64,000 nt of DNA from a virus, in IMG/VR virus record IMGVR_UViG_3300037067_022550; one strand, 5' to 3'. The stretch's first letter is position 1, and each line of letters starts with the position of its first letter. Under the pieces are notes generated by a model that did not search any database, was not told where the DNA came from, and saw only the letters and a program-made list of their open reading frames with translations. Both the position numbers and the translations under genes were made by a program. This document shows positions 1,392 through 54,828 of the stretch, in pieces.

Positions 1392-1422
1392 TAAATTAAA
1401 ACACAATAAATTGAGATATAAA

Positions 1423-2100: not shown

Positions 2101-2750
2101 AAAAAAATTTACTAATTGGTTTTACTGGAAGTGTTGCTTCAATCTTATATGAAAAGATTTGCAAGTCTTTTTATAAAGAATATAATGTTAAGGTTGTAAT
2201 GACAGAATCATCTAGACAATTTGTAAATGATACTGTTTTAAATGATATGGAAATAAAAGTTTTTTCAGATTATGACGAATTTTATGAACCTATTAATTTT
2301 GTTAATTCAACAGAAATGGTATTGAGATTAGATAATAAAAATGGAAGATACTGTAACAAAAATGACCCCATTCTACATATTCAACTTAGAGATTGGGCTG
2401 ACTGTTTACTAATTGCTCCTTGTTCTGCTAATACATTGGCTAAAATTTCCAATGGCATTTGTGATAATTTGCTTACATCAATTGTAAGAGCATGGGATTT
2501 CTCACTTAAAAAACAATTGCCTTGTAATAGTAATAAAAAAATTATTATTGCACCAGCTGCAAATTGTAAAATGTGGTGTCATCCAATTACACAAGAACAT
2601 ATTGATAAAATTGGGAAATGGGGAATTTGTGTTATTGATCCTGTTGAAAAGAAGCTAGCTTGTGGAGAAACTGGAATTGGGGCCATGGCAGACATTAGCA
2701 CAATTGTTCATACTGTTAAACAATATTTTTCTAATGAAACGGAACAATAA
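2097..2750 (+). CDS. coaC: phosphopantothenoylcysteine decarboxylase flavoprotein (CoaC / HFCD family)
   Basis: LLIGFTGSVASI, IAPCSANTLAKISNGICDNLLTS, IIIAPAAN and ACGETGIGAM motifs. AGGAG lies 7 nt before a GTG start at 2097, which overlaps the coaB stop as GTGA. Confidence 0.7.
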   Translation: MKKNLLIGFTGSVASILYEKICKSFYKEYNVKVVMTESSRQFVNDTVLNDMEIKVFSDYDEFYEPINFVNSTEMVLRLDNKNGRYCNKNDPILHIQLRDWADCLLIAPCSANTLAKISNGICDNLLTSIVRAWDFSLKKQLPCNSNKKIIIAPAANCKMWCHPITQEHIDKIGKWGICVIDPVEKKLACGETGIGAMADISTIVHTVKQYFSNETEQ

Positions 2751-4856: not shown

Positions 4857-5657
4857 ATGATATCAATTCTTTTTAGAAATAGCTGGCACCATAATGGGGA
4901 ACTTGAAACAGGAGAAGAATTTGAAGTTTCCAAGAAATATTTTCCTGTTTATGAGTACCGTTCTCAGGTGACAGAAAATTCATTAATTATAGGTAGATAT
5001 TCTGTTTTGCCGTTCTATGAAGAATTAGAAAAAGAACTATCTCTAAAAAAATCACTACTTATAAATTCCTACAAACAGCATAGATATATAGCTGATATAA
5101 CTAATTATTGTGAAGATCTTAATGGTTTTACGCCAAAAACCTATACTCAATGGATGAATATTAAGGAAGGCAAATATATAGTCAAAGGCAAAACAAACAG
5201 CAGAAAATTTAGGTGGGATACGCACATGTATGCTCCCAATAGAGATAGCCTTTTACGGGTCATTAGAAACCTATTTACAGACCAAATGATAGCCGATCAA
5301 GGAGTTGTCGTAAGAGATTATATTCCATTGAAAAAACTAGGAGAAGGAATCAACGGTTTGCCTATTTCAGCAGAATGGCGTTGTTTTTGTTATAAAGATA
5401 AGGTTTTAGCAACAGGTTTTTATTGGAGTAATTTTGAAGAACTTTCGCCTGGAAACTTACCTCAAGAAGGGGTTGACTTCTTAAAAAAAGTTACTGCCAT
5501 TGTATCAAAAAAAGTAAATTTCTATGTGGTTGATGTTGCTCAGAAAGAAAATGGGGAATATATGGTAGTAGAATTGAATTGTGGAATGATGTCGGGATTG
5601 AGTTGTGTAGACCCCAACGAAATGTATGGCAACTTAAAAAAAGCCTTAAACAGTTAA
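4857..5657 (+). CDS. ATP-grasp family enzyme (RimK / glutathione synthetase-like)
   Basis: GKYIVKGKTNSRKF, VVVRDYIP and GEYMVVELNCGMMSG resemble the ATP-grasp motifs KP..GS.G.GV and EvN..PG. Confidence 0.45.
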   Translation: MISILFRNSWHHNGELETGEEFEVSKKYFPVYEYRSQVTENSLIIGRYSVLPFYEELEKELSLKKSLLINSYKQHRYIADITNYCEDLNGFTPKTYTQWMNIKEGKYIVKGKTNSRKFRWDTHMYAPNRDSLLRVIRNLFTDQMIADQGVVVRDYIPLKKLGEGINGLPISAEWRCFCYKDKVLATGFYWSNFEELSPGNLPQEGVDFLKKVTAIVSKKVNFYVVDVAQKENGEYMVVELNCGMMSGLSCVDPNEMYGNLKKALNS

Positions 5658-8389: not shown

Positions 8390-9121
8390 TTATTTTGGTA
8401 AAGAATGATTATTTAACTTTTTCATTAAAGAACTGCTCAATTTGTTATTTAAATAATCAGTGTAATATTTGTTGGCAGTAACTGGCACTGGTTGTTGACG
8501 AATTTGATTTGGCTTTTTATACCTACCTCTTGTGAACCTATCCCAAGCTTGCATAACAGCCGTAGTTTGACTTGCCGGTGGTATGTCTTTTGCTGGATTT
8601 TTTATTTTATTAGATCTTATTGCTTTTATCCAATATTCGTCATTTTTAGTAATATTGGGAACAGCCGTAGACGGAGTTGATGTTTGAGCTACAGGTTGTT
8701 GCCCCTGGACTTGATTAGAAGGCTGTGGCTGTACTGGAGCTTTATTAGGAAGCTCTTGAGTAGTTGACTGTGGTTCATAAGCGTTAACTTGTTCAACAAA
8801 ACCATTAACAGTTGAATTTATTGTATCTTGTAATTTTTGAATAAGAGAAGCTATGCCTTTATATTCAGGAAAATTTTTCAAGTAACCCATTGCAGCACTA
8901 TTAGACTTATTAATAGTGGTATTGAAATCCCATATTTGTTTTACTAATTTATTTAACCAGTTTTCTAAGTAATCTATTGAAGCAGCAGGCATTTGAAATG
9001 TTTGTGCTGTCTTTAATATTTTTTTGCTGCTATTACCCAAAATAACATTTTTAACAATAGATTCTATTTCTTTATTAGATAAATTTAAAAATATTGAATT
9101 AGCATATGTTGTAATATTCAT
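8390..9121 (-). CDS. hypothetical protein with Q/P-rich linker
   Basis: 243 aa with a central low-complexity PQ-rich segment (QPQPSNQVQGQQPVAQ). Confidence 0.45.
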   Translation of the reverse strand: MNITTYANSIFLNLSNKEIESIVKNVILGNSSKKILKTAQTFQMPAASIDYLENWLNKLVKQIWDFNTTINKSNSAAMGYLKNFPEYKGIASLIQKLQDTINSTVNGFVEQVNAYEPQSTTQELPNKAPVQPQPSNQVQGQQPVAQTSTPSTAVPNITKNDEYWIKAIRSNKIKNPAKDIPPASQTTAVMQAWDRFTRGRYKKPNQIRQQPVPVTANKYYTDYLNNKLSSSLMKKLNNHSLPK

Positions 9122-9196
9122 AATTAAAATCCTTTTTTAAATTATTCACTAAAAAAAATAAAAATCCTGTTAAATAATATCAAAGGATAGGTAGGA

Positions 9197-17793: not shown

Positions 17794-20700
17794 TTATCTT
17801 CCAATAAAATGTCCTTTAAATCTTGAAGATCCATTGGTTCCCCCACCAGATATTGTGTCAGCAGCATTCTCAAGAACTCTAATAATATACCAGTTTGTTT
17901 GTCCATCGTCATAAAGAACAGCATTAATTCTAGCATCGTGTGCGTTAGCTAATGCTCCAATTCCACCTGACTGTATATTATTGGTTGAAGATGAATTACA
18001 TCTACTTAAATAAATAGTTAAAGCGTGATTGCCTGCAATTGTAATTTCAGCATTAACTTCATACCAACCAGCTATAGGAGGAATAAAAGCATTTTTGACA
18101 TTATCATAACACCCTGAAACAGATCCGTTTTCAATAAAAGGGATTGTTGTTATTTTATTGTTTGGAATTGTCCATCCATTGGTAATATAAGCATCAAAAG
18201 CTGCTAAAGCATTCATTGCCATATTGCTAACAGTATTAATATTATTCTGTAGATTAGTATCAGCCATATGCAAAGCGTTACTAGTAACATTAATATTGCC
18301 CTGCAAATTTGTGTCTGCTGCATGTAAAGCGTTACTAGCAACATTAATATTATTCTGTAGATTTGTGTCTACTGCATGTAAAGCATTACTAGCAATATTA
18401 ACATTTTCCTGTAAATTTGTTTCAGCAGTACCTGCCCTATTTATTTCAATGTTCAAATTAGATTCCGATGCATAATATGAAGGTAATTGACTTCCAAGAA
18501 TATCTGGTTTTGTTATCTGTATGTTTATAGAACCATTTGTTGCACTTACATTACACCATCCAATAAATTGAGAAATATTAGTTCCCGTCGGTTCAACATT
18601 AGTAATGCCCCCTGCAATAAGAGGACTTACATAAAGTTTATCGCCAGCAGTCCAAGATGTGGTATCCATTATATATTCAGCTCTTCCCAATCTAAGGATC
18701 ATACCTCTATTACCAGCAGAAATTCCGCCAATACTTGTAACTATACCAAAGCATGGCATTGTACTTAAAGAATCTGCTTTTGCTCTTTTAACATAATGTG
18801 ATGTGTCACTTATTCCAGAAGTTATATAAATTAATTCGCCTCGTTGTAAAGTATTTGTTTCAGAGTTATATACTGTTAAAACAGAATCTCTGCCTATTCT
18901 AGTTTGATTTCCTTTTGAATCTGTAAAATATGGTCTTTCAAATCCGCTTACAGCATCAATAAAAATTCTAAGGTGACCAGAAGCAGGATTAACTTGTTCA
19001 CCAGTATTTTCAGCTGACATATCAAGAGCCCCACCCAATAGCAATGTTCCGTCAGAATGTGGTGTAATATATATAAAATTGCCAGCATAGCCACTATTAG
19101 TATATCTACGGGGATAATTTGTTAAACTGCTTGATAAAATTGTGTTTATAATAAAAACAGAATCTTTATCATGTGTTGCTGCACCCCAATACACATTTGA
19201 AGGATTACCATCAGATATAGATACCCTATTGTCTTTAAAAGATATGCCACTTTCTCCAGACTTTCCATTAGCTGAATAGCCTAAAAACAAATTGCAATTA
19301 TTTGTTGTTAACAATGATAAAATATTAAAAACCCCTTCATATCCAATTCTTCCTGTAGCTCTATTATTATATGCAATTATAATATTATTCGAATATGAAA
19401 GACCTGCTGTATTAAGCTGAATTCTAGAAATACCACCTTGCACTGTATTTATTCCACGATATGAACTATCATGATTATATGTTATACTAATGTTGTCATT
19501 TTCATCTTTAGAGTTAATAATACTAGAACTATTAAATGATGAAAATTTAATTAATCCGCCAATTGATTCTCCATCTGTACTTTCAAATATTTGAGCATTG
19601 CAAACAGATTCAGAACCATTAGTTGGAATAATATTAAGTTCATTATAAGTGGTTGAATAAATTTCAACATCACCACGTTTTAATATAATCACGCTTTTAT
19701 TTGTAATATCATTGTCATAATCAGAACGCAAATAACAAGAATTAACAGCCATATAAGCATTATCAGCACCAGCATCTGCTATAATTGCAGGAGCATTTGT
19801 TTGAAATACAGTTATAAAAGTCAGTTCAGTTCCATTACTATCTGTATAATTTGTTGTCCAATTTACTGTTCCTTTAATTACAGTTGCCTCAATTGAGTTT
19901 GCATTAATTCCTATATAATTCTTCATCGTAATGTTTTCTGGATAAATTCCTGGACTTACTGTTACTATAAAACGATTAGAGTCTGATGCCACAATAGCAG
20001 CATCATCAATTGCAGCTTGTATGGTTTTATACGGTAAAATTGAACTCTCAAGTAAAGCTGTTGAATCATTTCCACTATCTGAATCAACATAAGCCCTGTT
20101 TGCGTTAATCTTATTAATTGTTGAATCAACATATCCTTTATTAGCTGCCTGATCGTCTGTGGCAGGATTACCCATACCAGATGGCAATATTCCTCCTGTA
20201 ACAGGACTTTTTAAAAGAACTTGATATAAACTTGGAACAGAACTGCCACTACTTCCCCCACCTGTAGATATGGTTCCTCTTCTTATCATAAATCTACGAT
20301 CTAACCAATAGTCTGACTCTTCTCTTAAACTAATATCTCCCCCTTGGAAAATATAGGCAGTACACTTTGGAACATAAGGTTCAAAACCAGGAGGCAAAAC
20401 TGGATCATCACCAGCTAAAGCAGATGCATAATTAGTATATTCTATTTGAGGATAAACCCATTCCATTGCAGGATTACCTTCTTGAGATAAAAATACTCCT
20501 CTATACCAATTACTAACTGTGCAATTAACTATATTTGTGCCATTATCCCATTTATCAATGGGGAGTTGATTAGTAACTGAATAGACCCATGTTGCTGTAT
20601 TTGTATGATAATATGTAACTAAAACAGTTGCAGGGGAAACAAAACCATAATTTGTTAAATTTTTAGACAAATGAACATTTCTTTGAGACATATTTTGATA

Positions 20701-21480
20701 TTCTATACCACCAACTTCTATAATTTGATTTAAATTTGTTCCAATAGCTGCATAATATAAGCCATCAACAACCAAAGAAGGCATTACGGCTGCATGTCCA
20801 GCATCAGTTTTTAATGGAAGATCTCCGGCTGGTATAATAGGTGATACATGCATAATTCTACCAAATCCCGTAATAAATCTACAAATAGCCATATTGTTGC
20901 CCGTATCAGGTCTCGTACCAGTAGTCCATGAAACCACATTTGGATTTGATAAACGCCAATATGCATAATTTATAGCATTATCCACCAGTGTGTTAGAACC
21001 AGCAGCCAGATGATAATAACCGTTTGTGGGATCATATACGTCTCCTTCATTCCAAGAAACATTTAAATCAGCAATTGGAGAAATATTATATGTAAAAACA
21101 GGGATATCTCTTGCTGCTCCTCTTGAACTGGTGTCTTCTATGAATTTATCTAAATAATAACCACCTAATGCACCTATTTGTCTAAATCCTTCACTGCCTA
21201 AAGTTTTAGAAGCTATTATATTACTGTATGTATTAATATTGTTTTGTAAGTTAGTATCAGCAGAAGTGGATCTAACAATTTCGTTATCAATCTTAGCACC
21301 TAAATTAGTTTCAGCGGCAACAGCGCGAATTGATTCAGCTTCAACTTGTTCAATTACATAATTAGTAGTGGCAACATTACCATCTGAGGAACCGTCATGA
21401 ATAACAGTTCCAAAAGATAAATTACCAAACAACAAAACAATAAAAAACAATAATATTATGATGTTATATTTAAGTTTCAT
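17794..21480 (-). CDS. large fibre-like protein with signal peptide, ETNL repeats and a C1q-like C-terminal domain
   Basis: 1228 aa. N-terminal signal/TM MKLKYNIIILLFFIVLLFG. Four 18-aa repeats (NALHAADTNLQNNINVAS). C-terminal FIPPIAGWYEVNAEI fits the C1q GxYxF signature. SD GGGGAGAG upstream. Confidence 0.55.
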   Translation of the reverse strand: MKLKYNIIILLFFIVLLFGNLSFGTVIHDGSSDGNVATTNYVIEQVEAESIRAVAAETNLGAKIDNEIVRSTSADTNLQNNINTYSNIIASKTLGSEGFRQIGALGGYYLDKFIEDTSSRGAARDIPVFTYNISPIADLNVSWNEGDVYDPTNGYYHLAAGSNTLVDNAINYAYWRLSNPNVVSWTTGTRPDTGNNMAICRFITGFGRIMHVSPIIPAGDLPLKTDAGHAAVMPSLVVDGLYYAAIGTNLNQIIEVGGIEYQNMSQRNVHLSKNLTNYGFVSPATVLVTYYHTNTATWVYSVTNQLPIDKWDNGTNIVNCTVSNWYRGVFLSQEGNPAMEWVYPQIEYTNYASALAGDDPVLPPGFEPYVPKCTAYIFQGGDISLREESDYWLDRRFMIRRGTISTGGGSSGSSVPSLYQVLLKSPVTGGILPSGMGNPATDDQAANKGYVDSTINKINANRAYVDSDSGNDSTALLESSILPYKTIQAAIDDAAIVASDSNRFIVTVSPGIYPENITMKNYIGINANSIEATVIKGTVNWTTNYTDSNGTELTFITVFQTNAPAIIADAGADNAYMAVNSCYLRSDYDNDITNKSVIILKRGDVEIYSTTYNELNIIPTNGSESVCNAQIFESTDGESIGGLIKFSSFNSSSIINSKDENDNISITYNHDSSYRGINTVQGGISRIQLNTAGLSYSNNIIIAYNNRATGRIGYEGVFNILSLLTTNNCNLFLGYSANGKSGESGISFKDNRVSISDGNPSNVYWGAATHDKDSVFIINTILSSSLTNYPRRYTNSGYAGNFIYITPHSDGTLLLGGALDMSAENTGEQVNPASGHLRIFIDAVSGFERPYFTDSKGNQTRIGRDSVLTVYNSETNTLQRGELIYITSGISDTSHYVKRAKADSLSTMPCFGIVTSIGGISAGNRGMILRLGRAEYIMDTTSWTAGDKLYVSPLIAGGITNVEPTGTNISQFIGWCNVSATNGSINIQITKPDILGSQLPSYYASESNLNIEINRAGTAETNLQENVNIASNALHAVDTNLQNNINVASNALHAADTNLQGNINVTSNALHMADTNLQNNINTVSNMAMNALAAFDAYITNGWTIPNNKITTIPFIENGSVSGCYDNVKNAFIPPIAGWYEVNAEITIAGNHALTIYLSRCNSSSTNNIQSGGIGALANAHDARINAVLYDDGQTNWYIIRVLENAADTISGGGTNGSSRFKGHFIGR
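18215..18430 (-). repeat. in-frame tandem repeat, 4 copies of a 54-nt unit inside the fibre gene
   Basis: The unit catgtaaagcgttactagcaacattaatatt... recurs with a 54-nt period. It also generates the spurious antisense ORF 18224..18475. Confidence 0.5.
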
Positions 21481-21643: not shown

Positions 21644-22396
21644 ATGCCAATTACATACTATTATGATTCCAAATTTAAAAAACCTTATCCAAACTTTGAA
21701 AAGATACAGAAAAGAAAAGTAATTCTTTCTGCAAGCAATGGGGCTGATTTAACAACTTCCGGGCTAAACTATACATTATGGCATCCTTCTGAAAACTGGG
21801 TAGTACATGAAGTTCTAATGCATTTTGGAGCTGCAACAGCTAGGTCTTACTCAGTTAACAAAGTAATCGGTAGAGGCATTATTACTAATTTAAATGACCT
21901 TTTATGGATAAGATGCGATGGATATACTGCACAAAGTATTTATTTGGATCAGGGCTTTTATACTGGAACAACATTGGCTACTCAAATTAAAACAAAATTA
22001 GATGCCGATGCCAATTTTATTGCTGCAGGTGTTGCTCCATTCACAGTATCCTATAGTGCTACAACAGGTAAATTTACTATTGTAACTACTGCTGGAAATA
22101 TTCAATTTATTAATACTAATATAGCTGTAGGAGTTAATAGAAATAGCACTGCTGGAGCTGTTGTTGGATTTGCAGCTGATAGTTCTTTTGCTACTTCAAT
22201 TACTAGTGACACTGCTGTTTTGGGGTTAGGAGATTTAATCCCAATAGATGCAGAAGCAACTAGTACAGATATAAATACAATTGTTAATGTAGATTCTCTT
22301 TCTCCAATTTTTGATGTGGACGGAGCTTTAAATTTAACAATTGGAACAGTTGCTACCACAGTAGATTATAAAATATCTTATGAAGAAGTTTTTTAA
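21644..22396 (+). CDS. hypothetical protein, possibly structural
   Basis: SD GAGGAG upstream. 250 aa, Thr/Ala/Gly-rich and beta-rich in character. Divergent from the fibre gene. Confidence 0.4.
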   Translation: MPITYYYDSKFKKPYPNFEKIQKRKVILSASNGADLTTSGLNYTLWHPSENWVVHEVLMHFGAATARSYSVNKVIGRGIITNLNDLLWIRCDGYTAQSIYLDQGFYTGTTLATQIKTKLDADANFIAAGVAPFTVSYSATTGKFTIVTTAGNIQFINTNIAVGVNRNSTAGAVVGFAADSSFATSITSDTAVLGLGDLIPIDAEATSTDINTIVNVDSLSPIFDVDGALNLTIGTVATTVDYKISYEEVF

Positions 22397-22427
22397 AGCA
22401 TTGTTATAATTTTTAACGCAATACATT

Positions 22428-23090
22428 ATGCCTATTTGTATAAAATGTCAATGGTTTAATAAAGATGCATCAGATTGTCACGCTCCAGGATATGATTCTG
22501 AATTGCGTAGGGTAACTTTAATGCGGAGATGTATATTTGGTGCTATAACAGAAAACTTAGACTTAATTAACGGCAAAGTTTTAGAAGTTGGACATGGCAA
22601 AGTCTTTTTTCTTAGAAAAAGAGTTAATAGAAAAAAATCTTTTTGGTATGGACTGGAGCCAAGATGGGCTGGAGGCGAACCACAAAACAAAATGTTTTAT
22701 GGCACTGTTTCTAAAATGCCTTTTGACAATATTTTTTTTGATTGTGTTGTTTGTAGTCAGAGTATAGAACATTGGCATGAATTTGGAGATACTATAGATT
22801 CTGGTCTAAAAGAAATATATAGAGTATTAAAACCTTCTGGTCTACTCTTTATTGATGTTCCTATTCATTCTCACGGAGCAAAAATATTTATTGTTGGAAA
22901 TATGGATGAAATTAAAAACATTTTTGATAAAGAAAAATGGGAAATAATTAAATTTGAAGAAAGAAGAAAAATTTATGAACCCTTAAAAGAACTTCCTACT
23001 ACAGTTAAACATCGTAAATATGCAATAGAAAATTCAGGACAAATAGTTCCTTCAGAATGGATATTAAATATTATTGTCAAAAAAATATAA
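22428..23090 (+). CDS. class I SAM-dependent methyltransferase
   Basis: Motif I VLEVGHG, motif II FDCVVCSQSIEHWHE, motif III LKPSGLLFIDVP. Confidence 0.45.
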   Translation: MPICIKCQWFNKDASDCHAPGYDSELRRVTLMRRCIFGAITENLDLINGKVLEVGHGKVFFLRKRVNRKKSFWYGLEPRWAGGEPQNKMFYGTVSKMPFDNIFFDCVVCSQSIEHWHEFGDTIDSGLKEIYRVLKPSGLLFIDVPIHSHGAKIFIVGNMDEIKNIFDKEKWEIIKFEERRKIYEPLKELPTTVKHRKYAIENSGQIVPSEWILNIIVKKI

Positions 23091-23858
23091 TTATTTGTTT
23101 AGTAATTTAATTATCAATGATTCAGGAGCACCATAAAGATTTTTTACAGGAGACCCAGCAAGTTTAACATCAACAATTGTTAAATCTACTATATAAACAT
23201 TATCTAAATAAGTTGTTGTAGCCCCATTGTAAACATTAAATCCCATAAAATTAGTTAAATTAGGATTAATAAATCCAAGATTATTAGTAACCAATGTATC
23301 ATTCATAAACAAACTCCATTTTTTAGTAATAAAGTTTTCATGAATACTAATTGTTATCCAACTATTGTTATTAGTTCCCATCCCGATATTTGTTATCGTT
23401 ATCCAATTCAAAGAATTTGTTGGAGAAGGATTAGTTGCAGGACCATTATGTACTGTGAAATAACCATTAGAATTTACATAAAACATTGCGACAACATTAG
23501 TATCAACAACAGGGTTATTAGTTCCATCATAAAAAACCATTCTAAGATCCATCTGAACACCCACAAAATTGTTAGTAACACCTTCAAATCTATTAGATAA
23601 TGTACTATCAACTGGAATCATTGCCATCTTTATACTACCAATTGGGGCAATAGCAGAATTTGATGTAACAATAACATTACTAGAAGAAGCATACCATCCA
23701 TTAGTACCCGTATCCAAGGGAGTTCCGTTGGTATATGATTCAAAATTGTCAGTGAATGGAATATTGGTGTTAACTCCTGAAAAGCCCTGCCCTGTTAAAA
23801 GAATAAAAATAGTTAAAACTATAATAGCTAACCTTCTCATTATTGAATTGCTCCCCAA
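23091..23858 (-). CDS. secreted protein, possible lectin/jelly-roll fold
   Basis: Signal peptide MRRLAIIVLTIFILLTGQGFSG. The FTDNFESYTNGTPLDTGTNGW segment is reminiscent of LamG/ConA-like domains. Confidence 0.4.
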   Translation of the reverse strand: MGSNSIMRRLAIIVLTIFILLTGQGFSGVNTNIPFTDNFESYTNGTPLDTGTNGWYASSSNVIVTSNSAIAPIGSIKMAMIPVDSTLSNRFEGVTNNFVGVQMDLRMVFYDGTNNPVVDTNVVAMFYVNSNGYFTVHNGPATNPSPTNSLNWITITNIGMGTNNNSWITISIHENFITKKWSLFMNDTLVTNNLGFINPNLTNFMGFNVYNGATTTYLDNVYIVDLTIVDVKLAGSPVKNLYGAPESLIIKLLNK

Positions 23859-24364
23859 ATTCCATCAGGACTAAAATGTATCTTGTTTGTTTCTATAGCA
23901 TATCCTATTATTCTTATAATTTCTCCTGAATTTGTTGGAATTGTTTGTCCCCACTCTCCAGATGTAGATGAAACATAAATAGGACTGCCAGGAGATAAAT
24001 TTGTGTTTGTAACAGTTAAATCTCCATTTACTAACATTCCATTAATTGAGCTATTTGTTCCTATAGCTATCCCCAACATCTTAGTGCAATTTCCATTAGT
24101 ATCAATAGTAACAACCCAAGCATTAGTTACCCACTGATATAACTTTTCAGGAATTGTGGTTGTATTACCAATTTTTAGTATTTTTTTAAATGTTCCGTCA
24201 GCTTCTACATTATTTAGAAGAGTATTACTTACTACGACAAAATCATTGGAAACAATTATCTTATCCTTTTCTACTATTGTGCCAGCATAGGCGTTATAAT
24301 AAAAGATAATAGATAATAATCCTATAAACCCAATGGTTAAAATTTTATTTATCTTTTTATACAT
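23840..24364 (-). CDS. secreted hypothetical protein
   Basis: Signal peptide MYKKINKILTIGFIGLLSIIFYYNAYAG. Confidence 0.4.
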   Translation of the reverse strand: MYKKINKILTIGFIGLLSIIFYYNAYAGTIVEKDKIIVSNDFVVVSNTLLNNVEADGTFKKILKIGNTTTIPEKLYQWVTNAWVVTIDTNGNCTKMLGIAIGTNSSINGMLVNGDLTVTNTNLSPGSPIYVSSTSGEWGQTIPTNSGEIIRIIGYAIETNKIHFSPDGIWGAIQ

Positions 24365-24557
24365 ATTTTCTCCTGTTTGTTTTTATAATTATACAATGAT
24401 TTGTTTATTTTAATAATTTTACATTAAAAAATTAATCACAAATATATAATGTATTTCTGCATTTTATTCAATTATCCCTACCTTGAACATTTTTTAAAAT
24501 AAAAGGGTTTTAGCATTTTTTATTGAAAAACTAAATACAATTAGGAAATAATAAATT

Positions 24558-25667
24558 ATGTCACTTCAAACTAGAGCAACAGCATTACAAGGAGAATATG
24601 TTAGGCTTTATTGTAGATTTATTCAGGATGGCATTTTAACAGATCCTTTTGCTGCACCAGAAGTTTATATAACAGATAACGGCTATTATCCGGATTCTGT
24701 TTCTTCATCTGAATCTTCTTCCTATAGCTACTCACTATCAGTTTCATCAGAAAGTTCATCTGAATCTGGAATTTATTATGGACCATTTACTGCACAAAAA
24801 GAACATACAGGACTTTGGTATATAGATTGGTTAGTTCCTGATAGTTTGCCTATTGGTAAATATTTTGATGTATGGAAATTTAAATGGTCAATAGATACAA
24901 GTATTAATAAAACAGAAATATTTGAATTAGTAGTAAATAAAATGGATCAACTTGTTAATTCTGTTAGCCCTGCAGAAACTTTCAATGTTGGGGATAATGT
25001 TTACGGTATGATGAACGATCTATCAAATAATTTCATCTATGAAGCCATGCATATACCTATATATTGGGAACAAGGTTATAAATCTAATGATAAAAAAACA
25101 ATTAACTTTGCCTTTGGTAATTGGAATCACGATCCCAGACCTATAATTAGAGTAAATCAAAAAATTCGTCCAGACGGTTGGCAACCCAATTATAATGGCA
25201 ATATTTATTTTAACCAAAGTTTAGATCCGGAAGATATGGTCTATGCTCAATATAATTTTAAATATTTTAGTAAAGAAGAAATAATGGATTTTCTTAATAT
25301 GGGTTTATATGCCATGAATGCTACACCTCCAGCTAGCCTAACTTATAATAGTATTAATAGTTCTCCTTTTGCTTGGAGATTTGGGATTATTTTATATGCT
25401 GCTATTAAAGCTATTCAAAGATTGGTGTTCGGATTAAATTTCCAAGAAAGAGCTTTAATATTTGCAGAAAAACCAGAAAATGTACAAGCTGCCATTAATA
25501 ACTTTAAGGCACTTTATGCAGATTATAATACTTTGTGGATTGAAGTTAAAAAAGAAGTTAAGACCTTGAAGTTGCCTAGTATCGGACAAATTTCTGTTCC
25601 TGAATATACGTTACCAGGTGGCAGAAGTCGTTGGTTTCGTTATCTTTACAAAAATGGATCTGGTTAA
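24558..25667 (+). CDS. hypothetical protein with Ser-rich low-complexity segment
   Basis: 369 aa. Low-complexity stretch SVSSSESSSYSYSLSVSSESSSESG. Confidence 0.45.
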   Translation: MSLQTRATALQGEYVRLYCRFIQDGILTDPFAAPEVYITDNGYYPDSVSSSESSSYSYSLSVSSESSSESGIYYGPFTAQKEHTGLWYIDWLVPDSLPIGKYFDVWKFKWSIDTSINKTEIFELVVNKMDQLVNSVSPAETFNVGDNVYGMMNDLSNNFIYEAMHIPIYWEQGYKSNDKKTINFAFGNWNHDPRPIIRVNQKIRPDGWQPNYNGNIYFNQSLDPEDMVYAQYNFKYFSKEEIMDFLNMGLYAMNATPPASLTYNSINSSPFAWRFGIILYAAIKAIQRLVFGLNFQERALIFAEKPENVQAAINNFKALYADYNTLWIEVKKEVKTLKLPSIGQISVPEYTLPGGRSRWFRYLYKNGSG

Positions 25668-26794
25668 GATAGTTGATGTTTCTCTTTATATCTTTTTAAT
25701 ATTAATTCTTTGTTTAAATTTAATATTGCATTTTTGTGTTTTAAATACTCTTGTTCATCAAACTTGTATAAAAGTTCTTTTATCGCAAATTTTTTAGTTA
25801 TTTTTAATAATTCTGATGAAGATTTAAAATCAAATATTATCCTAGGTTTTAGTTTTAACGCAGGACATCTAAATCTTACTTCTGCTGTTAATCCAAATTT
25901 TTCATATAATATTGTCTTTAATTTTTTATTTTCTTCTTCGGTAAAAGATTCAGAACACAATTGACATCTTGGAAGAGCATTGTTTAATTTTATTCCGTTT
26001 CTATATCCCCAATCAGTTATCCCATCATCCATAAACCAAATTGCTAAAACAAACTCATTTATATAATCTTCCATATTTTCTGGAACTACCTTTTTTCCGT
26101 TTTTATAAAAAGATTCTTTTAATTCTAAATTTAAACTATGAACTTTACAAACAAGTTGAAAAGTATAAACCCTAGTTCCAGATCTCTTATCATCTCCTAC
26201 GTAATAAGTAAAAGGGTTATTATTCCAAATTTCCTTTAAAAAACTAGCTTTCCACTCTAAATACTCAACTTGTTTTTCAGAATGTTTTTCTCTAAAATTT
26301 CCCCATTTATCTATACAACCATCCCCCAGAAGTGATCCAATAATAACATCCTTGGCTTCTTGAGACAATGGTTTTTCATTAGCAAGTCTTCTTATAAAAG
26401 TAGCTCCTTTTCTCTTAATGCCATAGAAGTCTCTTAAATATGTAATGTGTTCTCTTGGTATATTATATTTTTTTGATATATCATCTAAACTATTTATGGT
26501 TTGGTTATATTCTAATTCAAAAATTTCCTTATTAATAATTGTTGATTGATTTTTTAAAAAGTAATTATAAAAACTAATTAAGTGTTTAGATGTACCTTTT
26601 TTTATTTCTTTTGAAAATCCTCCATTTAATATTTTTTCTTTATATTCTTCAAAAGATATAAATTCTTTTTTTCTATGAGATGGTATTTTTAATCCATGTT
26701 CTTCCTGTTGAATGTGGCATTTATCAATACATTCCACCAATTCTTTTCTTGCCATTTCGTTGCTCACTTTATAAATATTGCTTGTTTTTAACAT
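25664..26794 (-). CDS. free-standing LAGLIDADG homing endonuclease
   Basis: Two LAGLIDADG motifs: IIGSLLGDGCID and LAIWFMDDGITD. Confidence 0.6.
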   Translation of the reverse strand: MLKTSNIYKVSNEMARKELVECIDKCHIQQEEHGLKIPSHRKKEFISFEEYKEKILNGGFSKEIKKGTSKHLISFYNYFLKNQSTIINKEIFELEYNQTINSLDDISKKYNIPREHITYLRDFYGIKRKGATFIRRLANEKPLSQEAKDVIIGSLLGDGCIDKWGNFREKHSEKQVEYLEWKASFLKEIWNNNPFTYYVGDDKRSGTRVYTFQLVCKVHSLNLELKESFYKNGKKVVPENMEDYINEFVLAIWFMDDGITDWGYRNGIKLNNALPRCQLCSESFTEEENKKLKTILYEKFGLTAEVRFRCPALKLKPRIIFDFKSSSELLKITKKFAIKELLYKFDEQEYLKHKNAILNLNKELILKRYKEKHQLS

Positions 26795-26930
26795 TATTTA
26801 TTCTCCTTAATTGTATATCTTATTATATATTACCAGAATTATTATACAACATCCTACAAAAATATACAATTTATTTTACCATATTTTTTATCCAATAGGA
26901 TTCTCCCCTTTAATCCAAGAAACATATTTC

Positions 26931-27815
26931 ATGAACAACATTACAAAAATATTAACACTTATATTTTTATTAATTTCATCAATATTATTTGCAGATTCAT
27001 TTTCTGCTTATATTGAAAATGATGTATATGAAAATAGTGATGGTTTCTATACTCATGGAACACAATTAGAATATACTCATAATATAGATTCAACCAATGT
27101 TTTAGGAATTAAGGGATCACAAGAAATATTTACTCCATCTGACAAAAATAATCCCCTTCCTGAATATGGTGACAGACCTTATGCAGGATGGTTACATGGG
27201 GATGTTTATTTGGAAAGATATTATGATAATCATTGGATAGATCATTATGAATTAAGTCTGGGAGTAGTTGGACCATATTCAGGTGGAGAATTAGCTCAAA
27301 AAACAGTTCATAAATGGTTAGGCAACAAACAACCTCAAGGATGGCAATATCAACTATTAAATGAACCTACTATTCAAATAAATTATGGTAAAATATACTC
27401 TGTTTTTTTAAATGATTATGTTGAATTACGTCCAGAAATGAGATTAAATGCTGGTAATGTTTTAGATGATTTTGAACTTATTCAAACTGTAAGATTTGGT
27501 TATAATATTCCTAAAGATTTTAGTCCTAGAATTTCTATTAAAGGATTATCAAAGAAATATTATTGTTATGGATTTTTAGGAGTAGCTGGGGCTGCAATTG
27601 CTAGGAATTTACTTTTAGATGGGAATACATTTAGGGAAGATGAAGATGTTGTGACTGTAGAACATAGACCAATTGTTTGTGATGGAATAATGGGTATATG
27701 CTTTGGAATAAATTTTATAGAAATAACTGTTACCCATATTGAACAAACAGATGAATTTTATGGTCAGAAGAGAGATGAAAGATATGACAGCTTAAAGGTA
27801 AGGTACATTTGGTAA
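26931..27815 (+). CDS. outer-membrane protein, LpxR/DUF2219-like (putative lipid A deacylase family)
   Basis: Signal peptide MNNITKILTLIFLLISSILFA. Mature N-terminus has YIENDV, and GDRPYAGWLHGD recalls a conserved LpxR-family motif. Start moved from 26811 to the internal ATG at 26931. Confidence 0.35.
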   Translation: MNNITKILTLIFLLISSILFADSFSAYIENDVYENSDGFYTHGTQLEYTHNIDSTNVLGIKGSQEIFTPSDKNNPLPEYGDRPYAGWLHGDVYLERYYDNHWIDHYELSLGVVGPYSGGELAQKTVHKWLGNKQPQGWQYQLLNEPTIQINYGKIYSVFLNDYVELRPEMRLNAGNVLDDFELIQTVRFGYNIPKDFSPRISIKGLSKKYYCYGFLGVAGAAIARNLLLDGNTFREDEDVVTVEHRPIVCDGIMGICFGINFIEITVTHIEQTDEFYGQKRDERYDSLKVRYIW

Positions 27816-27820
27816 ATTAA

Positions 27821-28729
27821 TTATTGATTCCACCAAGAATTTTGTATGGCTTCTTCTTTTTGTTCTTTTTGGCGTTCTTGAACCTCTTTATTAATCTTAT
27901 CTTGTTCTTGTCTTTTTTTAAATTCTTCTCTATCAAATCTAGCTTCTATTTCATATCCCAATTGATAATAATCTTTTAAAAGGGGATAACTTTTTAAAAA
28001 TTTGAGTCTAGCTTGATTGGGAGAATAAGCATCTTTTATAACATTTTCTAATTGTTGAGGAGTTTGTTCTATACCATATTTAATAACAACTATTTTATAG
28101 GGATAGGGCGTTTCTACTTTTTTTTCTGCTATTTTTTTTGATATTTTGTTCCCCTTATTATTTTTAGATAATAGGTGGTGAGATAATTTTACATCTTTGT
28201 GCTTTAAATCATCCATTTTTTTATAAAATAAAGAAATAATAAAATCATCTTTTGATAATATTTTTAGTAATCTTTTTATTCTTTCTACTAATACTTTATT
28301 GGCGGAATTTGTAAACTCATTTTTAAATTCTACAAAACGTTTCCCTAAAAAGTTAATAATAGATTTTTTCACAACATTTATGACTTCTTGGTTTTGTTTT
28401 ATTTCTGGAGGAGCTTCTAAATAAGACAATGCTACTAATGATGGTTCTGAAAGTTCTTTTGGATTAAATAAATTGTGTTCCCATAACCATTTTATTTCTT
28501 TTGGACAATTCCAGTTATCAACAGCTTTCCAAGAGATTTGGTTGCTTTCCCCTTTTCTTAAAACTTCAGCCAGTATTTCAGGGGGGCAGTTAATATTGCC
28601 GGCTGCATACATAGAAATGACATCTTCTTTTCCCCTTCTCAGAACTTCTGCTAAAATTTCAGGAGGACAGTTAGGATCTTGAACCATTTCTGATGTTATT
28701 TTTGATTGTGATGTCTTATACCAGTTCAT
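27821..28729 (-). CDS. MNWYK-leader protein with NPNCPPEIL (LRV/HEAT-like) repeats
   Basis: Starts MNWYKTSQ. Repeats DPNCPPEILAEVLRRGKEDVIS, NINCPPEILAEVLRKGESNQIS and NWNCPKEI. Paralogue of 58454..59299. Confidence 0.55.
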   Translation of the reverse strand: MNWYKTSQSKITSEMVQDPNCPPEILAEVLRRGKEDVISMYAAGNINCPPEILAEVLRKGESNQISWKAVDNWNCPKEIKWLWEHNLFNPKELSEPSLVALSYLEAPPEIKQNQEVINVVKKSIINFLGKRFVEFKNEFTNSANKVLVERIKRLLKILSKDDFIISLFYKKMDDLKHKDVKLSHHLLSKNNKGNKISKKIAEKKVETPYPYKIVVIKYGIEQTPQQLENVIKDAYSPNQARLKFLKSYPLLKDYYQLGYEIEARFDREEFKKRQEQDKINKEVQERQKEQKEEAIQNSWWNQ

Positions 28730-29322
28730 TCATATTTATCCTTAAAAATAGTATCAAATACATCTTTAATTCCGAATTTTTCTTTAATCATTTTATTGAT
28801 ATCTGGATAGCTTCTTATCTTATCTGATTCATTATTATAAACGGCCAATGCTTCTTTTATCATATCCATTCGCAAATAATCAATAAATGTTTTAACACAA
28901 GAAACTCCTCTACCGTTATTTTTTATTTTTTGAATATTGTCTAGTTTATCAATCCAATCTGTTTCTACTAATTTGTCGCTTATCCCTAAATATACCTGAA
29001 TAGACTTATTACCTTTTGCTTTTGCCATGCCTATTCTATGTTTTCCGTCTAAAACATCATAGGAATTATTATCTATTTTTAAAACAATCGGTGGAATATT
29101 TGTTTGTTTGTTTTTAAATTTAGGATCTGCTACCCAGTCAAAAAGATCTAATGATAATTCTGTTAGTTCCCATTGTTTAGACGCATAAGCTATTTCTTTG
29201 GCACTATTAAGATTTATTTCTCCTGACCAATCTTTTAATGAATTATTTAAAATAAAATCAACCATTTCATCGCCTGTTAGAGATTTTGGATAATTTTTTT
29301 GTGATATTTTATACCAGTTCAT
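28726..29322 (-). CDS. MNWYK-leader protein with ParB/Srx-like nuclease domain
   Basis: Starts MNWYKISQ. PPIVLKIDNNSYDVLDGKHRIGMAKAKG matches the ParB/sulfiredoxin DGxHR motif. 4-nt overlap with the downstream gene. Confidence 0.5.
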   Translation of the reverse strand: MNWYKISQKNYPKSLTGDEMVDFILNNSLKDWSGEINLNSAKEIAYASKQWELTELSLDLFDWVADPKFKNKQTNIPPIVLKIDNNSYDVLDGKHRIGMAKAKGNKSIQVYLGISDKLVETDWIDKLDNIQKIKNNGRGVSCVKTFIDYLRMDMIKEALAVYNNESDKIRSYPDINKMIKEKFGIKDVFDTIFKDKYE

Positions 29323-29627
29323 TGCAATACAAGTCCCATATAGTAAGCAGTTCTTTCACATTCTTTTAATATTAAATCTTCGTCACTGCTTCCTAAAAAT
29401 TCAAAAAATTGGAAATTAGGAAGTTGATGTTTTTCTTGTTTAGAACCGCTTTGCCAAAAAGCTTTTAATTTTTCATTCAAATACACATTGCAAAAATAAA
29501 CAAATTTTTGCAACTCATTTTGGTCTTCACTTTCAAAACAAATTCCCCAGGTATGAACTCCGTCTGGATAATGAATATATAGTTTGTCTTTTAATTCTGC
29601 TTTTTTATACCAGTTGGTTTTAAACAT
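29319..29627 (-). CDS. NWYK-leader hypothetical protein
   Basis: Starts MFKTNWYKK. 102 aa. 4-nt overlap with the neighbouring gene. Confidence 0.45.
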   Translation of the reverse strand: MFKTNWYKKAELKDKLYIHYPDGVHTWGICFESEDQNELQKFVYFCNVYLNEKLKAFWQSGSKQEKHQLPNFQFFEFLGSSDEDLILKECERTAYYMGLVLQ

Positions 29628-29629
29628 AT

Positions 29630-30577
29630 TTATTTACCAATAATTTTTTGTTTTAAATTTCTAACAAAATCTTCTTTATTTTCATATCTGTCTATCATTG
29701 TTTTAAGAACATCTTCTGGAACTCCATGAACATTTCTGCCTTTTAGAAAATCGAAATTCCATTTTCCGGTAGAATCTTTTAAATCTTTATGCCAATGAGG
29801 TTCTTCTATTCTTATTTTATAACCGTGACCGATAGCCATTCTAACGTAAGGTTCTGCTTCTATAGCTTGTGTATTAGTATTGGCTATAATTATGGGAGTT
29901 ATACCATTTTCCATTGCTTCAAGACATCTTTCTTGATTCCAATTATGGGCTTCTATTTGTTTTTCTTTATCAAAAACATATTTATCTTGTTGCATAAAAA
30001 ATTCATCTGATTCTAAAACAATACCTGTATTTCCAGCTAATTGTTTGGCTAATGTACTTTTTCCGCCGCCAGGAGGGCATCTCACCAATATCATTAGTTT
30101 TTCTTGTTGGGATATTTTGTGCCAATTGCAACTATGGCTTAAGTTTAATTCTGGTTGATATTTAATTTCTTCTTTTCTTTTCTTTTTTTGTTCAATTAAA
30201 TAATTACACATTCCAATAACTCTTCTTAATGTTTCTTTATCAAACAAAGCCATATGACATAAATTTCTTGGAACATTAAGTTTTCTGGCCAACCAATTAT
30301 AATATTTTTGTTGAGCTTCTTTAGGATTGGATTCGTTTTCTATCATTTCTTTTATTTTATTATGAGCTGCTTTCCTCAATGCTATTGTTTCTAAATCTCC
30401 AGGAACTCCTTGTGGCTTACCATCTTTGAATGCTCCATGAGTAACTTTACAATCTGGATAATTTTGACAACGATAGTAAAATCTGTCATTCCATTTATGA
30501 AGTTTAAGTTTTGAGCCGCATTCAGGGCAATCTAAATCGTGTTCCTTTACTTCTTGTGCAATTTTATACCAGTTCAT
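29630..30577 (-). CDS. MNWYK-leader protein with topoisomerase-type Zn ribbon plus P-loop kinase domain (polynucleotide-kinase-like)
   Basis: Starts MNWYKIAQ. Zn ribbon CPECGSKLKL...CQNYPDCK. Walker A CPPGGGKST. C-terminal HGVPEDVLKTMIDRY resembles PNK-family kinases. Confidence 0.55.
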   Translation of the reverse strand: MNWYKIAQEVKEHDLDCPECGSKLKLHKWNDRFYYRCQNYPDCKVTHGAFKDGKPQGVPGDLETIALRKAAHNKIKEMIENESNPKEAQQKYYNWLARKLNVPRNLCHMALFDKETLRRVIGMCNYLIEQKKKRKEEIKYQPELNLSHSCNWHKISQQEKLMILVRCPPGGGKSTLAKQLAGNTGIVLESDEFFMQQDKYVFDKEKQIEAHNWNQERCLEAMENGITPIIIANTNTQAIEAEPYVRMAIGHGYKIRIEEPHWHKDLKDSTGKWNFDFLKGRNVHGVPEDVLKTMIDRYENKEDFVRNLKQKIIGK

Positions 30578-30837
30578 AATTCCCCCGATAAAGTTCCCAA
30601 AAGGTATTTTGCCCCAATTTCTTTTGCTTTTGAGGCATAATCAAAAGTTGTTGGCATATGACCTCTATATTGACCTTCAAACCAAAAATGAGGAACATAA
30701 TAAACATAAAAATCTTTAAGTGGGTCATTTTTTTTGACACCTTCCTTATAATGTTTTTTTACAGTTACCTTCCACCCCTTGGGCAATTTTACTTTTTCTG
30801 CTTCTGGAAATTCTTGAGACGTTTTATACCAGTTCAT
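30574..30837 (-). CDS. MNWYK-leader small hypothetical protein
   Basis: The ORF track starts at MKRTIM (30852). An AAGGA SD sits 7 nt before the MNWYKTSQ ATG at 30837, so that start is preferred. Confidence 0.45.
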   Translation of the reverse strand: MNWYKTSQEFPEAEKVKLPKGWKVTVKKHYKEGVKKNDPLKDFYVYYVPHFWFEGQYRGHMPTTFDYASKAKEIGAKYLLGTLSGEL

Positions 30838-31048
30838 GATTGTCCTTTTCAAAAATCAATTTTTCTTCACCTATATATAGTTCTTTTTTGAATTTTCTAA
30901 AAATATGTTCTAATATTTCAGCACAACCACTTTTATTAATAGTTGTTATAGGGATGCAATTTCTACAGGTGCTGATAACTTTGCCAACATGTTCTCTACC
31001 AACATTTATTATAATTTTATTTTCGCGTCTTATGTATTTAACGAACAC
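30824..31048 (-). CDS. hypothetical small protein
   Basis: 74-aa ORF with CRNC...C Cys residues. Confidence 0.3.
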   Translation of the reverse strand: MFVKYIRRENKIIINVGREHVGKVISTCRNCIPITTINKSGCAEILEHIFRKFKKELYIGEEKLIFEKDNHELV

Positions 31049-54824: not shown

Positions 54825-54828
54825 ATTT

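Follow-up and report, generated by a model that had tools for sequence, protein, structure and literature searches.

The window (the whole stretch of 64,000 nucleotides analysed here, from an IMG/VR virus record) contains an lpxR gene on the plus strand (26931..27815), which starts with ATG and encodes a precursor of 294 aa with a mature barrel of approximately 273 aa. This gene is the lone plus-strand gene amid replication-type genes, nucleotide-metabolism genes and genes of unknown function, and its GC content (0.293) equals that of the 64-kb window (0.293). A divergent intergenic region of 136 bp (26795..26930) separates it from a LAGLIDADG gene and is presumed to be the promoter region. 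The single, weak sigma-70-like match upstream of lpxR (26843..26870) is not regarded as evidence for a promoter, as the promoter scan around the gene returned three promoter-like sites versus 13.4 expected from shuffled sequences, i.e. fewer than the shuffles. The terminator scan gave one candidate 'terminator', which is located inside coding sequence. A longer open reading frame starting with TTG at 26811 is unlikely, since the 93%-identical homologue P0001 has the ATG as its start and a signal peptide has to lie at the very N-terminus.

The 294-aa product matches the Pfam family LpxR (PF09982, formerly named DUF2219) well above the cutoff of 26 bits, with a score of 223.7 bits (E 3.7e-66) which chance cannot account for, and the alignment is full-length, spanning profile positions 11–322 of 323. 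The first-pass annotation had placed the gene in the LpxR/DUF2219 family, with the lack of such a profile match set beforehand as a refutation, and its assignment holds. The NCBIfam search with the product found no matching model, and an exact look-up of the 294-aa protein found no record. The likeness to LpxR which had been noticed in GDRPYAGWLHGD (residues 80–91) is borne out, as its aligned counterpart in the solved LpxR is KGDRAFSAFLHTG and the region contains R82, P83, Y84 and A85, all invariant among 119 homologues, and D81, present in at least 90% of them.

Residues 1–21 (26931..26993, plus strand) constitute a predicted Sec-type signal peptide with the cleavage site LFA/DS. As read from the sequence, the N-terminus MNNITKILTLIFLLISSILFA, which is followed by DSFSAYIENDV, combines a charged n-region with a hydrophobic core; position −1 is occupied by a small residue, and there is no lipobox. 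The cut-site context preceding D-S/K-x-S-x-Y-x-E-N-D is found throughout a clade of compact LpxR homologues (see below), and in the AlphaFold model a strand at residues 23–30 comes after a helix at residues 2–18. The earlier description of a secreted 294-aa protein is in line with this open reading frame and its predicted signal peptide, and the claim that Asn-Asp occupies mature positions 9 and 10 agrees with the predicted cleavage after A21, by which N30 and D31 become these very residues. The C-terminal strand (27795..27812, plus strand), reading …LKVRYIW, ends with an aromatic residue and is a putative outer-membrane protein beta-signal, such an aromatic end (F, W or Y) being shared by 46 of the 49 compact sequences. 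The aromatic beta-signal at the C-terminus of outer-membrane proteins is recognised by BAM.

The AlphaFold model (pLDDT 90.1) is a 12-stranded barrel with a helix at residues 119–130. LpxR from Salmonella (PDB 3FID) is the sole strong PDB match both by sequence (E 8e-13) and by fold (Foldseek E 2.3e-27, TM 0.80), the fold matches after it being generic barrels with TM of 0.5 or below, while the fold search of BFVD gave generic barrels only and no LpxR-like viral structure. Characterised LpxR is likewise a 12-stranded barrel (PMC7383365), the active-site helix of which is located in extracellular loop 3 (PMC6260217). An outer-membrane barrel, and not a soluble protein, had been proposed for this gene, and the confident model with 3FID as its closest structure upholds the proposal; a diderm host, also suggested earlier, is a logical consequence of an outer-membrane enzyme acting on lipid A.

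Asparagine, aspartate, serine/threonine, glutamine and histidine residues are needed for LpxR activity, as shown by mutagenesis (PMC3486919), and the Ca2+ coordination by N9–D10, the role of K67 and the mechanism of LpxR have been described (PMC6260217). Residue conservation was assessed in 60 sequences, comprising 49 compact and 11 long homologues which are otherwise just 30–50% identical, and the register relative to 3FID was checked through the 3FID N-terminus. All the essential positions of LpxR (N9, D10, S/T34, Q118 and H122) are kept in the phage protein as N30, D31, T41, Q123 and H127. The codons of N30–D31 (27018..27023, plus strand) correspond to the Ca2+ ligands N9–D10, invariant in all 60 sequences; the codon of T41 (27051..27053, plus strand) aligns with T34 of 3FID, where threonine or serine occurs in 60 of 60; and Q123…H127 in the loop-3 helix (27297..27311, plus strand), equally invariant in 60 of 60, align in 3FID with Q118 and the catalytic base H122. 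K72 (27144..27146, plus strand) is aligned with K67, the Kdo/phosphate contact of LpxR, lysine being present at this position in 34 of the 49 compact sequences and in none of the 11 long bacterial forms, while R68 and D11 of LpxR are not conserved in the alignment. In the MAFFT alignment, the row of E. coli LpxR placed its second 'ND' on the END motif of the family, which is wrong, since 3FID has N20-A21 at that site; the true N9–D10 is thus the first ND motif.

These residues bear on whether the protein may be a catalytically dead barrel serving as a porin, a receptor decoy or a structural outer-membrane protein. Outer-membrane barrels that are not enzymes do occur in phages, BFVD contains many generic phage barrels, phage 434 has a porin adjoining its LpxR, and signalling effects persist in catalytically dead LpxR of Yersinia (PMC3486919). 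However, five essential residues are invariant across the 60 otherwise divergent sequences, the loop-3 helix bearing H127 is confidently modelled, and the dN/dS of lpxR is 0.10 as compared with a 93%-identical relative (L001), so that a dead barrel is hardly credible. Judged from its sequence, the gene is under purifying selection and is maintained. The protein is very probably a phage-borne LpxR enzyme, and it is likely that the reaction it performs is specifically 3'-O-deacylation.

The window looks like part of a large phage of virulent type, AT-rich and derived from landfill leachate. Many of its ORFs have a match in PHROG, in several cases to a family without known function, or have no match at all, and many of the families are PHROG-only. 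When 24 kb of the window were compared by megablast with 50,697 phage records, nothing matched, and a neighbour of 1227 aa has only a 12% match at best, to an Acinetobacter phage. Besides topoisomerase IA, NAD-dependent ligase, a sigma factor and a sliding clamp, the window encodes enzymes of envelope-sugar metabolism, namely a SIS-domain isomerase (phrog_5670, arabinose-5-phosphate isomerase), a UDP-glucose dehydrogenase and a GT4 glycosyltransferase. It shares seven genes with the relative L006 and two with the IMG/VR viral contig L010. The window might alternatively be cellular or another mobile element carrying an ordinary bacterial lpxR, as no gene for a capsid, portal or terminase protein was recognised in the 64 kb, the topoisomerase, ligase, sigma factor and clamp occur in cells too, and one member of the LpxR clade is deposited under a Verrucomicrobiota MAG. 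This is very improbable in view of the matches to PHROG families, the free-standing LAGLIDADG gene, the intein, the HNH genes, the lack of any tRNA in the 64-kb window and the genes in common with an IMG/VR viral contig; furthermore, the 'Verrucomicrobiota' contig is itself phage-like (PolA, RecA, GP88 and dozens of tiny ORFs), and no member of the clade was found among 185,579 bacterial species genomes. The claim that the gene is phage-encoded is upheld by the same features.

Approximately 45 compact homologues (about 275–315 aa), out of roughly 3,900 homologues in total, cluster apart from the longer bacterial LpxRs. All 13 of the distinct genomic contexts of this clade that are at least 6.7 kb long look phage-like, with hallmarks such as a portal gene in L003, L017 and L033, a terminase gene in L017 and a tape measure gene in L011, while the contexts of P0125 and P0127 are too short for interpretation. 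An IMG/VR scan with the single protein found nothing, the clade alignment being needed to find members. The GC content of the contigs carrying compact members ranges from 28% to 56%, anoxic landfill leachate is the source of the closest relatives (the longest contig listed for the P0001 cluster measures 108 kb), and some members are located on Mu-like, probably temperate phages such as L017.

In several of these relatives, LpxR is encoded in a module containing holin genes, which points to a role in lysis. In L017, the LpxR gene overlaps the end of a PF23987 holin gene by 4 bp, and the PF23987 gene is itself preceded by a phrog_3427 holin. Homologous two-TM and small TM proteins are encoded before LpxR in L011/L024, L025/L032, L028, L023 and L029, and a homologue of the small TM protein of L028 adjoins LpxR in the unrelated L008. 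A related Mu-like prophage, integrated in a contig of 206 kb (L036), has an intact patatin phospholipase in the place of LpxR within the module. The holin adjacency, together with the patatin replacement, suggests a weakening of the outer membrane at release. The holin-linked loci belong mostly to related phages, and common descent partly accounts for the shared gene order. No holin neighbours of LpxR were found in the AT-rich relatives L006, L010 and L016.

Two further neighbours of LpxR in relatives were considered as lysis proteins. A protein of about 100 aa encoded downstream of LpxR was rejected as a spanin, being an HNH endonuclease with a signal-like N-terminus. A protein of about 300 aa encoded upstream was rejected as a proven endolysin, as it is a TIM barrel with weak GH5/GH84 similarity (TM 0.43–0.56), and the PDB profile search with its family gave no match. 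With this neighbour only weakly glycosidase-like, a full lysis cassette is at most putative.

By analogy with the biochemistry of LpxR, the precursor would be produced while the phage infects a diderm host, exported by Sec and cut after A21, and the mature protein would be inserted in the outer membrane by BAM via the C-terminal aromatic signal. A Ca2+ ion held by N30, D31 and T41 would polarise the ester carbonyl, and a water molecule activated by H127 with the help of Q123 would cleave the 3'-acyloxyacyl group off the Kdo-lipid A of the outer leaflet. In the least certain step, for which the neighbourhoods in relatives are the guide, an under-acylated LPS leaflet may be weaker late in infection, which would help the outer membrane to break and progeny to be released. 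Deacylation alone does not rupture the membrane, since bacteria such as Helicobacter and Yersinia survive although LpxR deacylates their lipid A; the LpxR of Salmonella is latent in vivo. The biological role inferred for LpxR is that the phage probably remodels or weakens the outer membrane of its host. A role in progeny release itself is proposed tentatively, with a chance somewhat short of even; taken as one claim leaning to enzyme identity, a phage LpxR enzyme which performs 3'-O-deacylation and acts in release is slightly favoured. In the window, lpxR is not near any lysis gene, which counts against the release role: the search of the 64 kb brought up neither a holin nor an endolysin or spanin, and the neighbours of lpxR include no such TM proteins.

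The stand-alone position of lpxR, away from lysis genes and among replication-type genes, would also fit a role in exclusion, in which LpxR alters the packing of LPS on the infected cell and its debris and thereby reduces the adsorption of competitors or of the phage's own progeny. The envelope-sugar genes of the window agree with such a general programme of LPS remodelling, and receptor-destroying precedents are known in the Llp lipoprotein of T5 and in conversion genes modifying the O-antigen. However, the receptors of phages on LPS are normally sugars, whereas the acyl chains cut by LpxR lie buried in the membrane, and exclusion leaves unexplained both the holin adjacency and the patatin swap in relatives; it is therefore considered unlikely. 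Receptor masking through the removal of buried acyl chains would be mechanistically indirect, and immune evasion is the least likely of the three roles suggested in the first-pass annotation (exclusion, evasion and receptor masking), given that the closest relatives originate in anoxic leachate of a landfill.

A further explanation is that of a lysogenic-conversion or host-fitness gene by which a prophage would change lipid A to the benefit of the bacterium, for instance as a protection against innate immunity, grazers or membrane stress. Lambdoid prophages of E. coli are the documented setting of phage-borne LpxR, and Mu-like, probably temperate phages are seen in the clade as well (L017, and the integrated L036 with its patatin). 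As no integrase or repressor occurs among the scanned ORFs of the window, which has a virulent-type look, as animal immunity is irrelevant in the anoxic landfill leachate of its relatives, and as the identity to lambdoid LpxR is just 27%, a conversion gene is quite improbable here.

The preferred reading, that of an enzyme acting at release, can be extended to the compact clade as a whole. This clade may be phage-specific and provide an enzymatic outer-membrane breaker at lysis in a variety of tailed phages infecting environmental diderms, those of PVC type among them, interchangeable with patatin-like phospholipases and constituting a third route beside spanins and disruptin peptides, which in the present phage would be part of a wider LPS-remodelling set; this generalisation is possible, and rather doubtful. 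If these phages do use lipid-ester hydrolases to weaken the outer membrane, this would go some way to explaining the exit from diderm cells by phages without recognisable spanins. On the same condition, small, self-inserting enzymes that under-acylate LPS would become available, with a possible use in making detoxified LPS and vesicle vaccines.

Among known systems, PagL is a 3-O lipid A deacylase which forms an 8-stranded outer-membrane barrel with a Ser-His-Glu triad, and its deacylation promotes vesiculation in Salmonella. The phage protein resembles it as an outer-membrane barrel predicted to remove an acyl chain of lipid A, whereas fold and mechanism differ. Identity with PagL was rejected, as Pfam gave only LpxR and the model has 12 strands; PagL is also absent among the 50 best fold matches listed for the model.

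Spanins (Rz/Rz1) and disruptin-type peptides likewise target the outer membrane, and LpxR in relatives follows holins, in the usual place of spanins. In contrast to spanins, to which it has no relation in sequence or structure, LpxR is an enzyme that resides within the outer membrane and not a periplasm-spanning fusion complex, and in the window it is encoded outside any lysis cassette.

The LpxR of lambdoid prophages (Escherichia phage 434, EHEC/EPEC prophages, phrog_2309) is, as here, a phage-borne single accessory gene in its own orientation. It belongs to a different branch, with 27% identity, and phrog_2309 is a remote match to the present protein (E 7.8e-12). In phage 434, a temperate phage of 47 kb from an enteric pathogen, LpxR is located beside the antiterminator Q, whereas the phage with the present gene is large, AT-rich and derived from landfill leachate, with no antiterminator Q, nin or lysogeny genes seen among the scanned ORFs of the window. 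For more than 98% of PasD hits, the distance from lambdoid LpxR to prophage sRNA genes does not exceed 10 kb (PMC13192938). LpxR of EHEC has a link to virulence regulation through the Ler regulon and is connected with damped TLR4 signalling. Any LpxR homologue is found in only 2 of the 50,697 deposited phage records.

The bacterial LpxRs (Salmonella Typhimurium 3FID, Yersinia, E. coli O157 and Helicobacter) are Ca2+-dependent outer-membrane lipid A 3'-O-deacylases, with which the phage protein shares the 12-stranded barrel, the active-site helix in loop 3, the same essential residues together with K67, the mature N-D at positions 9–10, the motif GDRxxxxxxLH, the signal peptide and the C-terminal aromatic residue. 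When the structures are aligned, it is no more than about 22% identical to 3FID. The mature protein is shorter: unlike Salmonella LpxR, it has no segment of about 14 residues between N-D and Y-T; unlike most bacterial homologues, it also has no insertion of about 20 residues after strand 2, and its gene is located on a phage and not on a chromosome. Phage LpxR is already known as a kind, while this clade and its setting are new: a large, apparently virulent landfill-leachate phage; a compact branch occurring only on phage-like contigs in all contexts examined and keeping all the catalytic residues; and one subclade with LpxR right after holin genes and a patatin lipase as its substitute in a related prophage.

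The window gene lpxR (26931..27815, plus strand; ATG start) encodes a 294-aa protein which the first-pass annotation, pointing to the stretch GDRPYAGWLHGD (residues 80–91), had likened to the LpxR family of outer-membrane lipid A 3'-O-deacylases. This likeness is borne out by the PF09982 profile, the match to 3FID and the barrel model, and membership of the LpxR family, in a phage setting, is well supported. The profile search proposed in that annotation gives a strong Pfam match to PF09982 (LpxR, formerly DUF2219) over almost the full profile (score 223.7 bits, cutoff 26; E 3.7e-66), and Salmonella LpxR (3FID) is the only significant solved relative in a sequence search (E 8e-13). The AlphaFold model, built on 119 homologues (pLDDT 90.1, pTM 0.85), contains 12 strands and a helix at residues 119–130; the predicted 12-stranded barrel has 3FID as its nearest fold (Foldseek top match, E 2.3e-27, TM 0.80), all other Foldseek matches being generic barrels with a TM of 0.5 or below. 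Residues R82, P83, Y84 and A85 are invariant among the 119 homologues, and D81 is present in at least 90% of them. PagL, another lipid A deacylase, is excluded, as Pfam reported LpxR alone and the model has 12 strands.

Residues N9, D10, S34, Q118 and H122 are required according to mutagenesis of Yersinia LpxR, in agreement with work on the Salmonella enzyme (PMC3486919). LpxR requires Ca2+, which N9, D10 and T34 coordinate; the water molecule for hydrolysis is activated by H122, a residue of the helix in loop 3, and Kdo is bound by K67 and R68 (PMC6260217). In the alignment, the window equivalents of N9, D10, S/T34, Q118, H122 and K67 are N30, D31, T41, Q123, H127 and K72, respectively. The N, D, S/T, Q and H residues are invariant across 49 compact homologues (short forms like the window protein, grouping apart from the longer bacterial LpxRs) and 11 long ones. 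An aromatic residue ends 46 of these 49 compact sequences and all 11 long ones. As judged from these conserved residues, the window enzyme probably catalyzes 3'-O-deacylation of Kdo-lipid A. The MAFFT placement of the E. coli row at the N-terminus was wrong; the register was settled by 3FID, which reads SLAISVA-N9-D10 and then N20-A21.

The N-terminus, MNNITKILTLIFLLISSILFA followed after the cut by DSFSAYIENDV, is read as a Sec signal peptide, and its cut-site pattern (A before the cut, D-S/K-x-S-x-Y-x-E-N-D after it) is repeated among the aligned relatives. The model places a helix at residues 2–18 and strand 1 from residue 23. Predicted cleavage after A21 would put N30-D31 at mature positions 9–10, where the first-pass annotation had located the Asn-Asp pair. 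Translation probably does not start further upstream, at TTG 26811, since a 93%-identical homologue begins at ATG.

A word-indexed search retrieved one close relative and then eight proteins of 273–314 aa (41–50% identity), below which scores fall to bacterial LpxRs of about 330–350 aa with at most 35% identity. With an exhaustive search the family grew to 3,894 members at E ≤0.001, and among the best 150 of these about 45 clusters are compact forms of 275–310 aa, which match in a single full-length stretch, whereas long forms match in two. The compact forms cluster together in a neighbour-joining tree without support values, and the long forms closest to them there bear the labels Verrucomicrobiales and Lentisphaerae. 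Of the clade contexts open to examination, 13 distinct ones span at least 6.7 kb, and all 13 look phage-like. They include PolA, RecA and GP88 (L002, deposited in a Verrucomicrobiota MAG), an SPP1-type portal (L003), Thy1, an intein-bearing peptidase, MazG and a CCA-adding enzyme (L006), NAMPT, NMNAT-Nudix and a clamp loader (L010), a tape measure protein (L011, with L024 identical), and a terminase, Mu-type portal and Mu-like protease (L017), while L001, L008, L016, L018, L025 (equal to L032 in the shared region) and L028 carry many small ORFs without known function. When 185,579 genomes representing bacterial and archaeal species were scanned with two peptide patterns, no clade member emerged, only relatives at about 30% identity; as the result depends on those two patterns, this absence is not proof. 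The compact clade is found here on phage-like contigs only. The contigs carrying it range in GC from 0.28 to 0.56, and gene GC follows contig GC in the seven loci with both measured. Two other proteins recur near LpxR: a DUF3228 protein in AT-rich phage contigs (L006 10914..11504, directly downstream; L016 4919..5653, about 2.7 kb upstream), which L020 854..1444 resembles by eye, and a papain-like peptidase (phrog_16701) in the otherwise unrelated L033 (3172..4104, directly upstream) and L008 (2667..3386, one gene downstream).

lpxR is under maintenance and fits the genome of the window: against the 93%-identical copy on L001, dS is 0.41, dN 0.041 and dN/dS 0.10, and its GC of 0.293 equals that of the window (27–33% GC), with a GC3 of 0.125 that is lower still than its neighbours'. 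The window looks like a large phage, a call based on gene content and relatives and not on a virion module, as no capsid, portal, terminase or lysis gene was found within the 64 kb. It encodes a topoisomerase IA, an NAD-dependent ligase, a sliding-clamp homologue and a sigma factor, together with a dUTPase, a Nudix hydrolase, an RlaP-like nucleotidyltransferase, methylases, two radical-SAM proteins, split CoaB/CoaC, a DUF932 protein, an HNH endonuclease and a free-standing LAGLIDADG endonuclease; no tRNA was found in the 64 kb. PHROG families of unknown function account for several ORFs and phrog_1383 ('virion structural protein') for one, and many match nothing. Seven ORFs have homologues on L006 (41–72% identity), and for two there is a homologue on L010, a viral contig of IMG/VR; L006 and L010 each carry LpxR too, at a differing position. 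The separate CoaB-like DFP (1384..2750, +) and CoaC-like Flavoprotein (4857..5657, +) genes, near an R2K ATP-grasp protein, are unusual metabolic genes for a phage. A 1227-aa ORF (17794..21480, −), possibly for a virion protein, has no Pfam or PHROG match; the one similarity found is with a hypothetical protein from Acinetobacter phage phiAC-1 (31% across 150 residues).

lpxR stands alone on the plus strand, convergent with a gene of no recognised family and divergent from the LAGLIDADG homing endonuclease gene directly upstream (25664..26794, −). No other gene differs as much between the window and L001 as this endonuclease gene (67% aa identity, compared with 92–98% for its upstream neighbours), and the DNA alignment breaks off within it; the endonuclease may assist the transfer of the neighbouring lpxR from phage to phage. 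Two overlapping ORFs at 23091..24364 (−; 255 and 174 aa, signal-peptide-like N-termini) and a 369-aa protein with a Ser-rich stretch (24558..25667, +) have no family match, are 96–98% conserved in L001, and with LpxR would form a small cluster of putatively exported proteins. On the other side, five successive, otherwise dissimilar minus-strand ORFs (27821..28729, 28726..29322, 29319..29627, 29630..30577 and 30574..30852) open with the motif (M)NWYK(T/I/K)(S/A)Q, which could be a targeting or packaging tag or a recombination scar; that at 29630..30577 combines a DUF3268 zinc finger with an AAA_33 kinase. Tandem NPNCPPE(I/T)L(A/T)EVL(R/K) repeats are shared by the paralogues 27821..28729 (−) and 58454..59299 (+), one of which has 2–3 copies and the other about 7; the plus-strand paralogue weakly matches phrog_32365.

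Contig L001 derives from IMG 3300035208, a 2017 sample of leachate well LW1 at a Southern Ontario landfill (bioRxiv 10.1101/2024.05.30.596742), and L021, whose LpxR is 96% identical to the window's over the N-terminal 118 residues present, from the same well in 2016 (PMC9723747). Near-identical copies of window 21644..28414 were assembled from LW1 in both years, and the lineage of this phage therefore survived in the well for a year or more. The main text of the landfill megaphage and auxiliary-gene paper (bioRxiv 10.1101/2024.05.30.596742) makes no mention of LpxR, lipid A or LPS. The lpxR of EHEC is a member of the Ler regulon, and it damps signalling through TLR4; a comparable benefit to the host by immune evasion is unlikely in leachate, and conversion of the host to its own advantage is an improbable role for the window enzyme.

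Gene neighbours in the relatives point, tentatively, to a role in weakening the host outer membrane for progeny release. In L017, the LpxR gene begins within the last 4 bp of a Phage_holin_10 gene (Pfam, 46.5 bits against a cutoff of 27), upstream of which lies a 2-TM protein matching holin phrog_3427 (E 3.8e-9). The GC-rich loci L011/L024, L025/L032, L028, L023 and L029 repeat the order ~300-aa protein, 2-TM protein and LpxR, where the 2-TM protein shows weak homology with the holin of L017 (E 1e-4). Only L011/L024 and L028 have a small TM protein between the latter two, and a homologue of the L028 version directly follows LpxR in the otherwise unrelated L008. The ~300-aa family has no Pfam, PHROG or PDB sequence match; its model, a TIM barrel behind an N-terminal helix (pLDDT 90.7), weakly resembles GH5 and GH84 glycosidases (TM 0.43–0.56), and it is a possible endolysin. 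A homologue of this family is encoded on L036, a 206 kb Kiritimatiellaeota MAG contig (JAPLSY010000088.1), by a Mu-like prophage in which the module lacks LpxR and has in its place a patatin-like phospholipase (8684..9568) with intact GGGxxG, GxSxG and DGG motifs. Two distinct lipid-ester hydrolases in one module beside holins would be expected if their job were outer-membrane damage at release. Directly downstream of LpxR, a conserved ~100-aa protein with a signal-peptide-like N-terminus and an HNH motif (L011 2981..3313, L025 6802..7098, L028 7616..7963, L023 2722..3018) may be an exported nuclease.

It counts against release that no lysis gene was detected near the window lpxR or anywhere in the 64 kb, and that LpxR has no holin neighbours in the AT-rich relatives L006, L010 and L016. 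Several window genes are envelope- or LPS-related, namely lpxR, a SIS-domain isomerase (54147..54878, −; phrog_5670, arabinose-5-phosphate isomerase, first Kdo step), a GT4 glycosyltransferase (2754..3785, +) and a UDP-glucose/GDP-mannose dehydrogenase (9197..11914, −) split by an intein with a LAGLIDADG domain. The envelope-sugar genes fit a wider LPS-remodelling programme and were likewise counted against release; that LpxR serves exclusion or prevents readsorption is considered unlikely. Several bacteria live with LpxR-modified lipid A, and deacylation for release would therefore weaken the membrane, not rupture it. A possible enzymatic outer-membrane step in lysis is a lead worth following.

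Phage carriage of LpxR in itself is already known. In phage 434, an annotated 'outer membrane beta-barrel lipid A deacylase' adjoins antiterminator Q, but this form is only 27% identical to the window protein, and in pathogenic E. coli prophage sRNA genes are located less than 10 kb from LpxR (PMC13192938). Any homologue was found in just 2 of 50,697 deposited phage records, and the PHROGs entry for the family, phrog_2309, is labelled 'unknown function'. The window LpxR represents a known enzyme family in a new setting.
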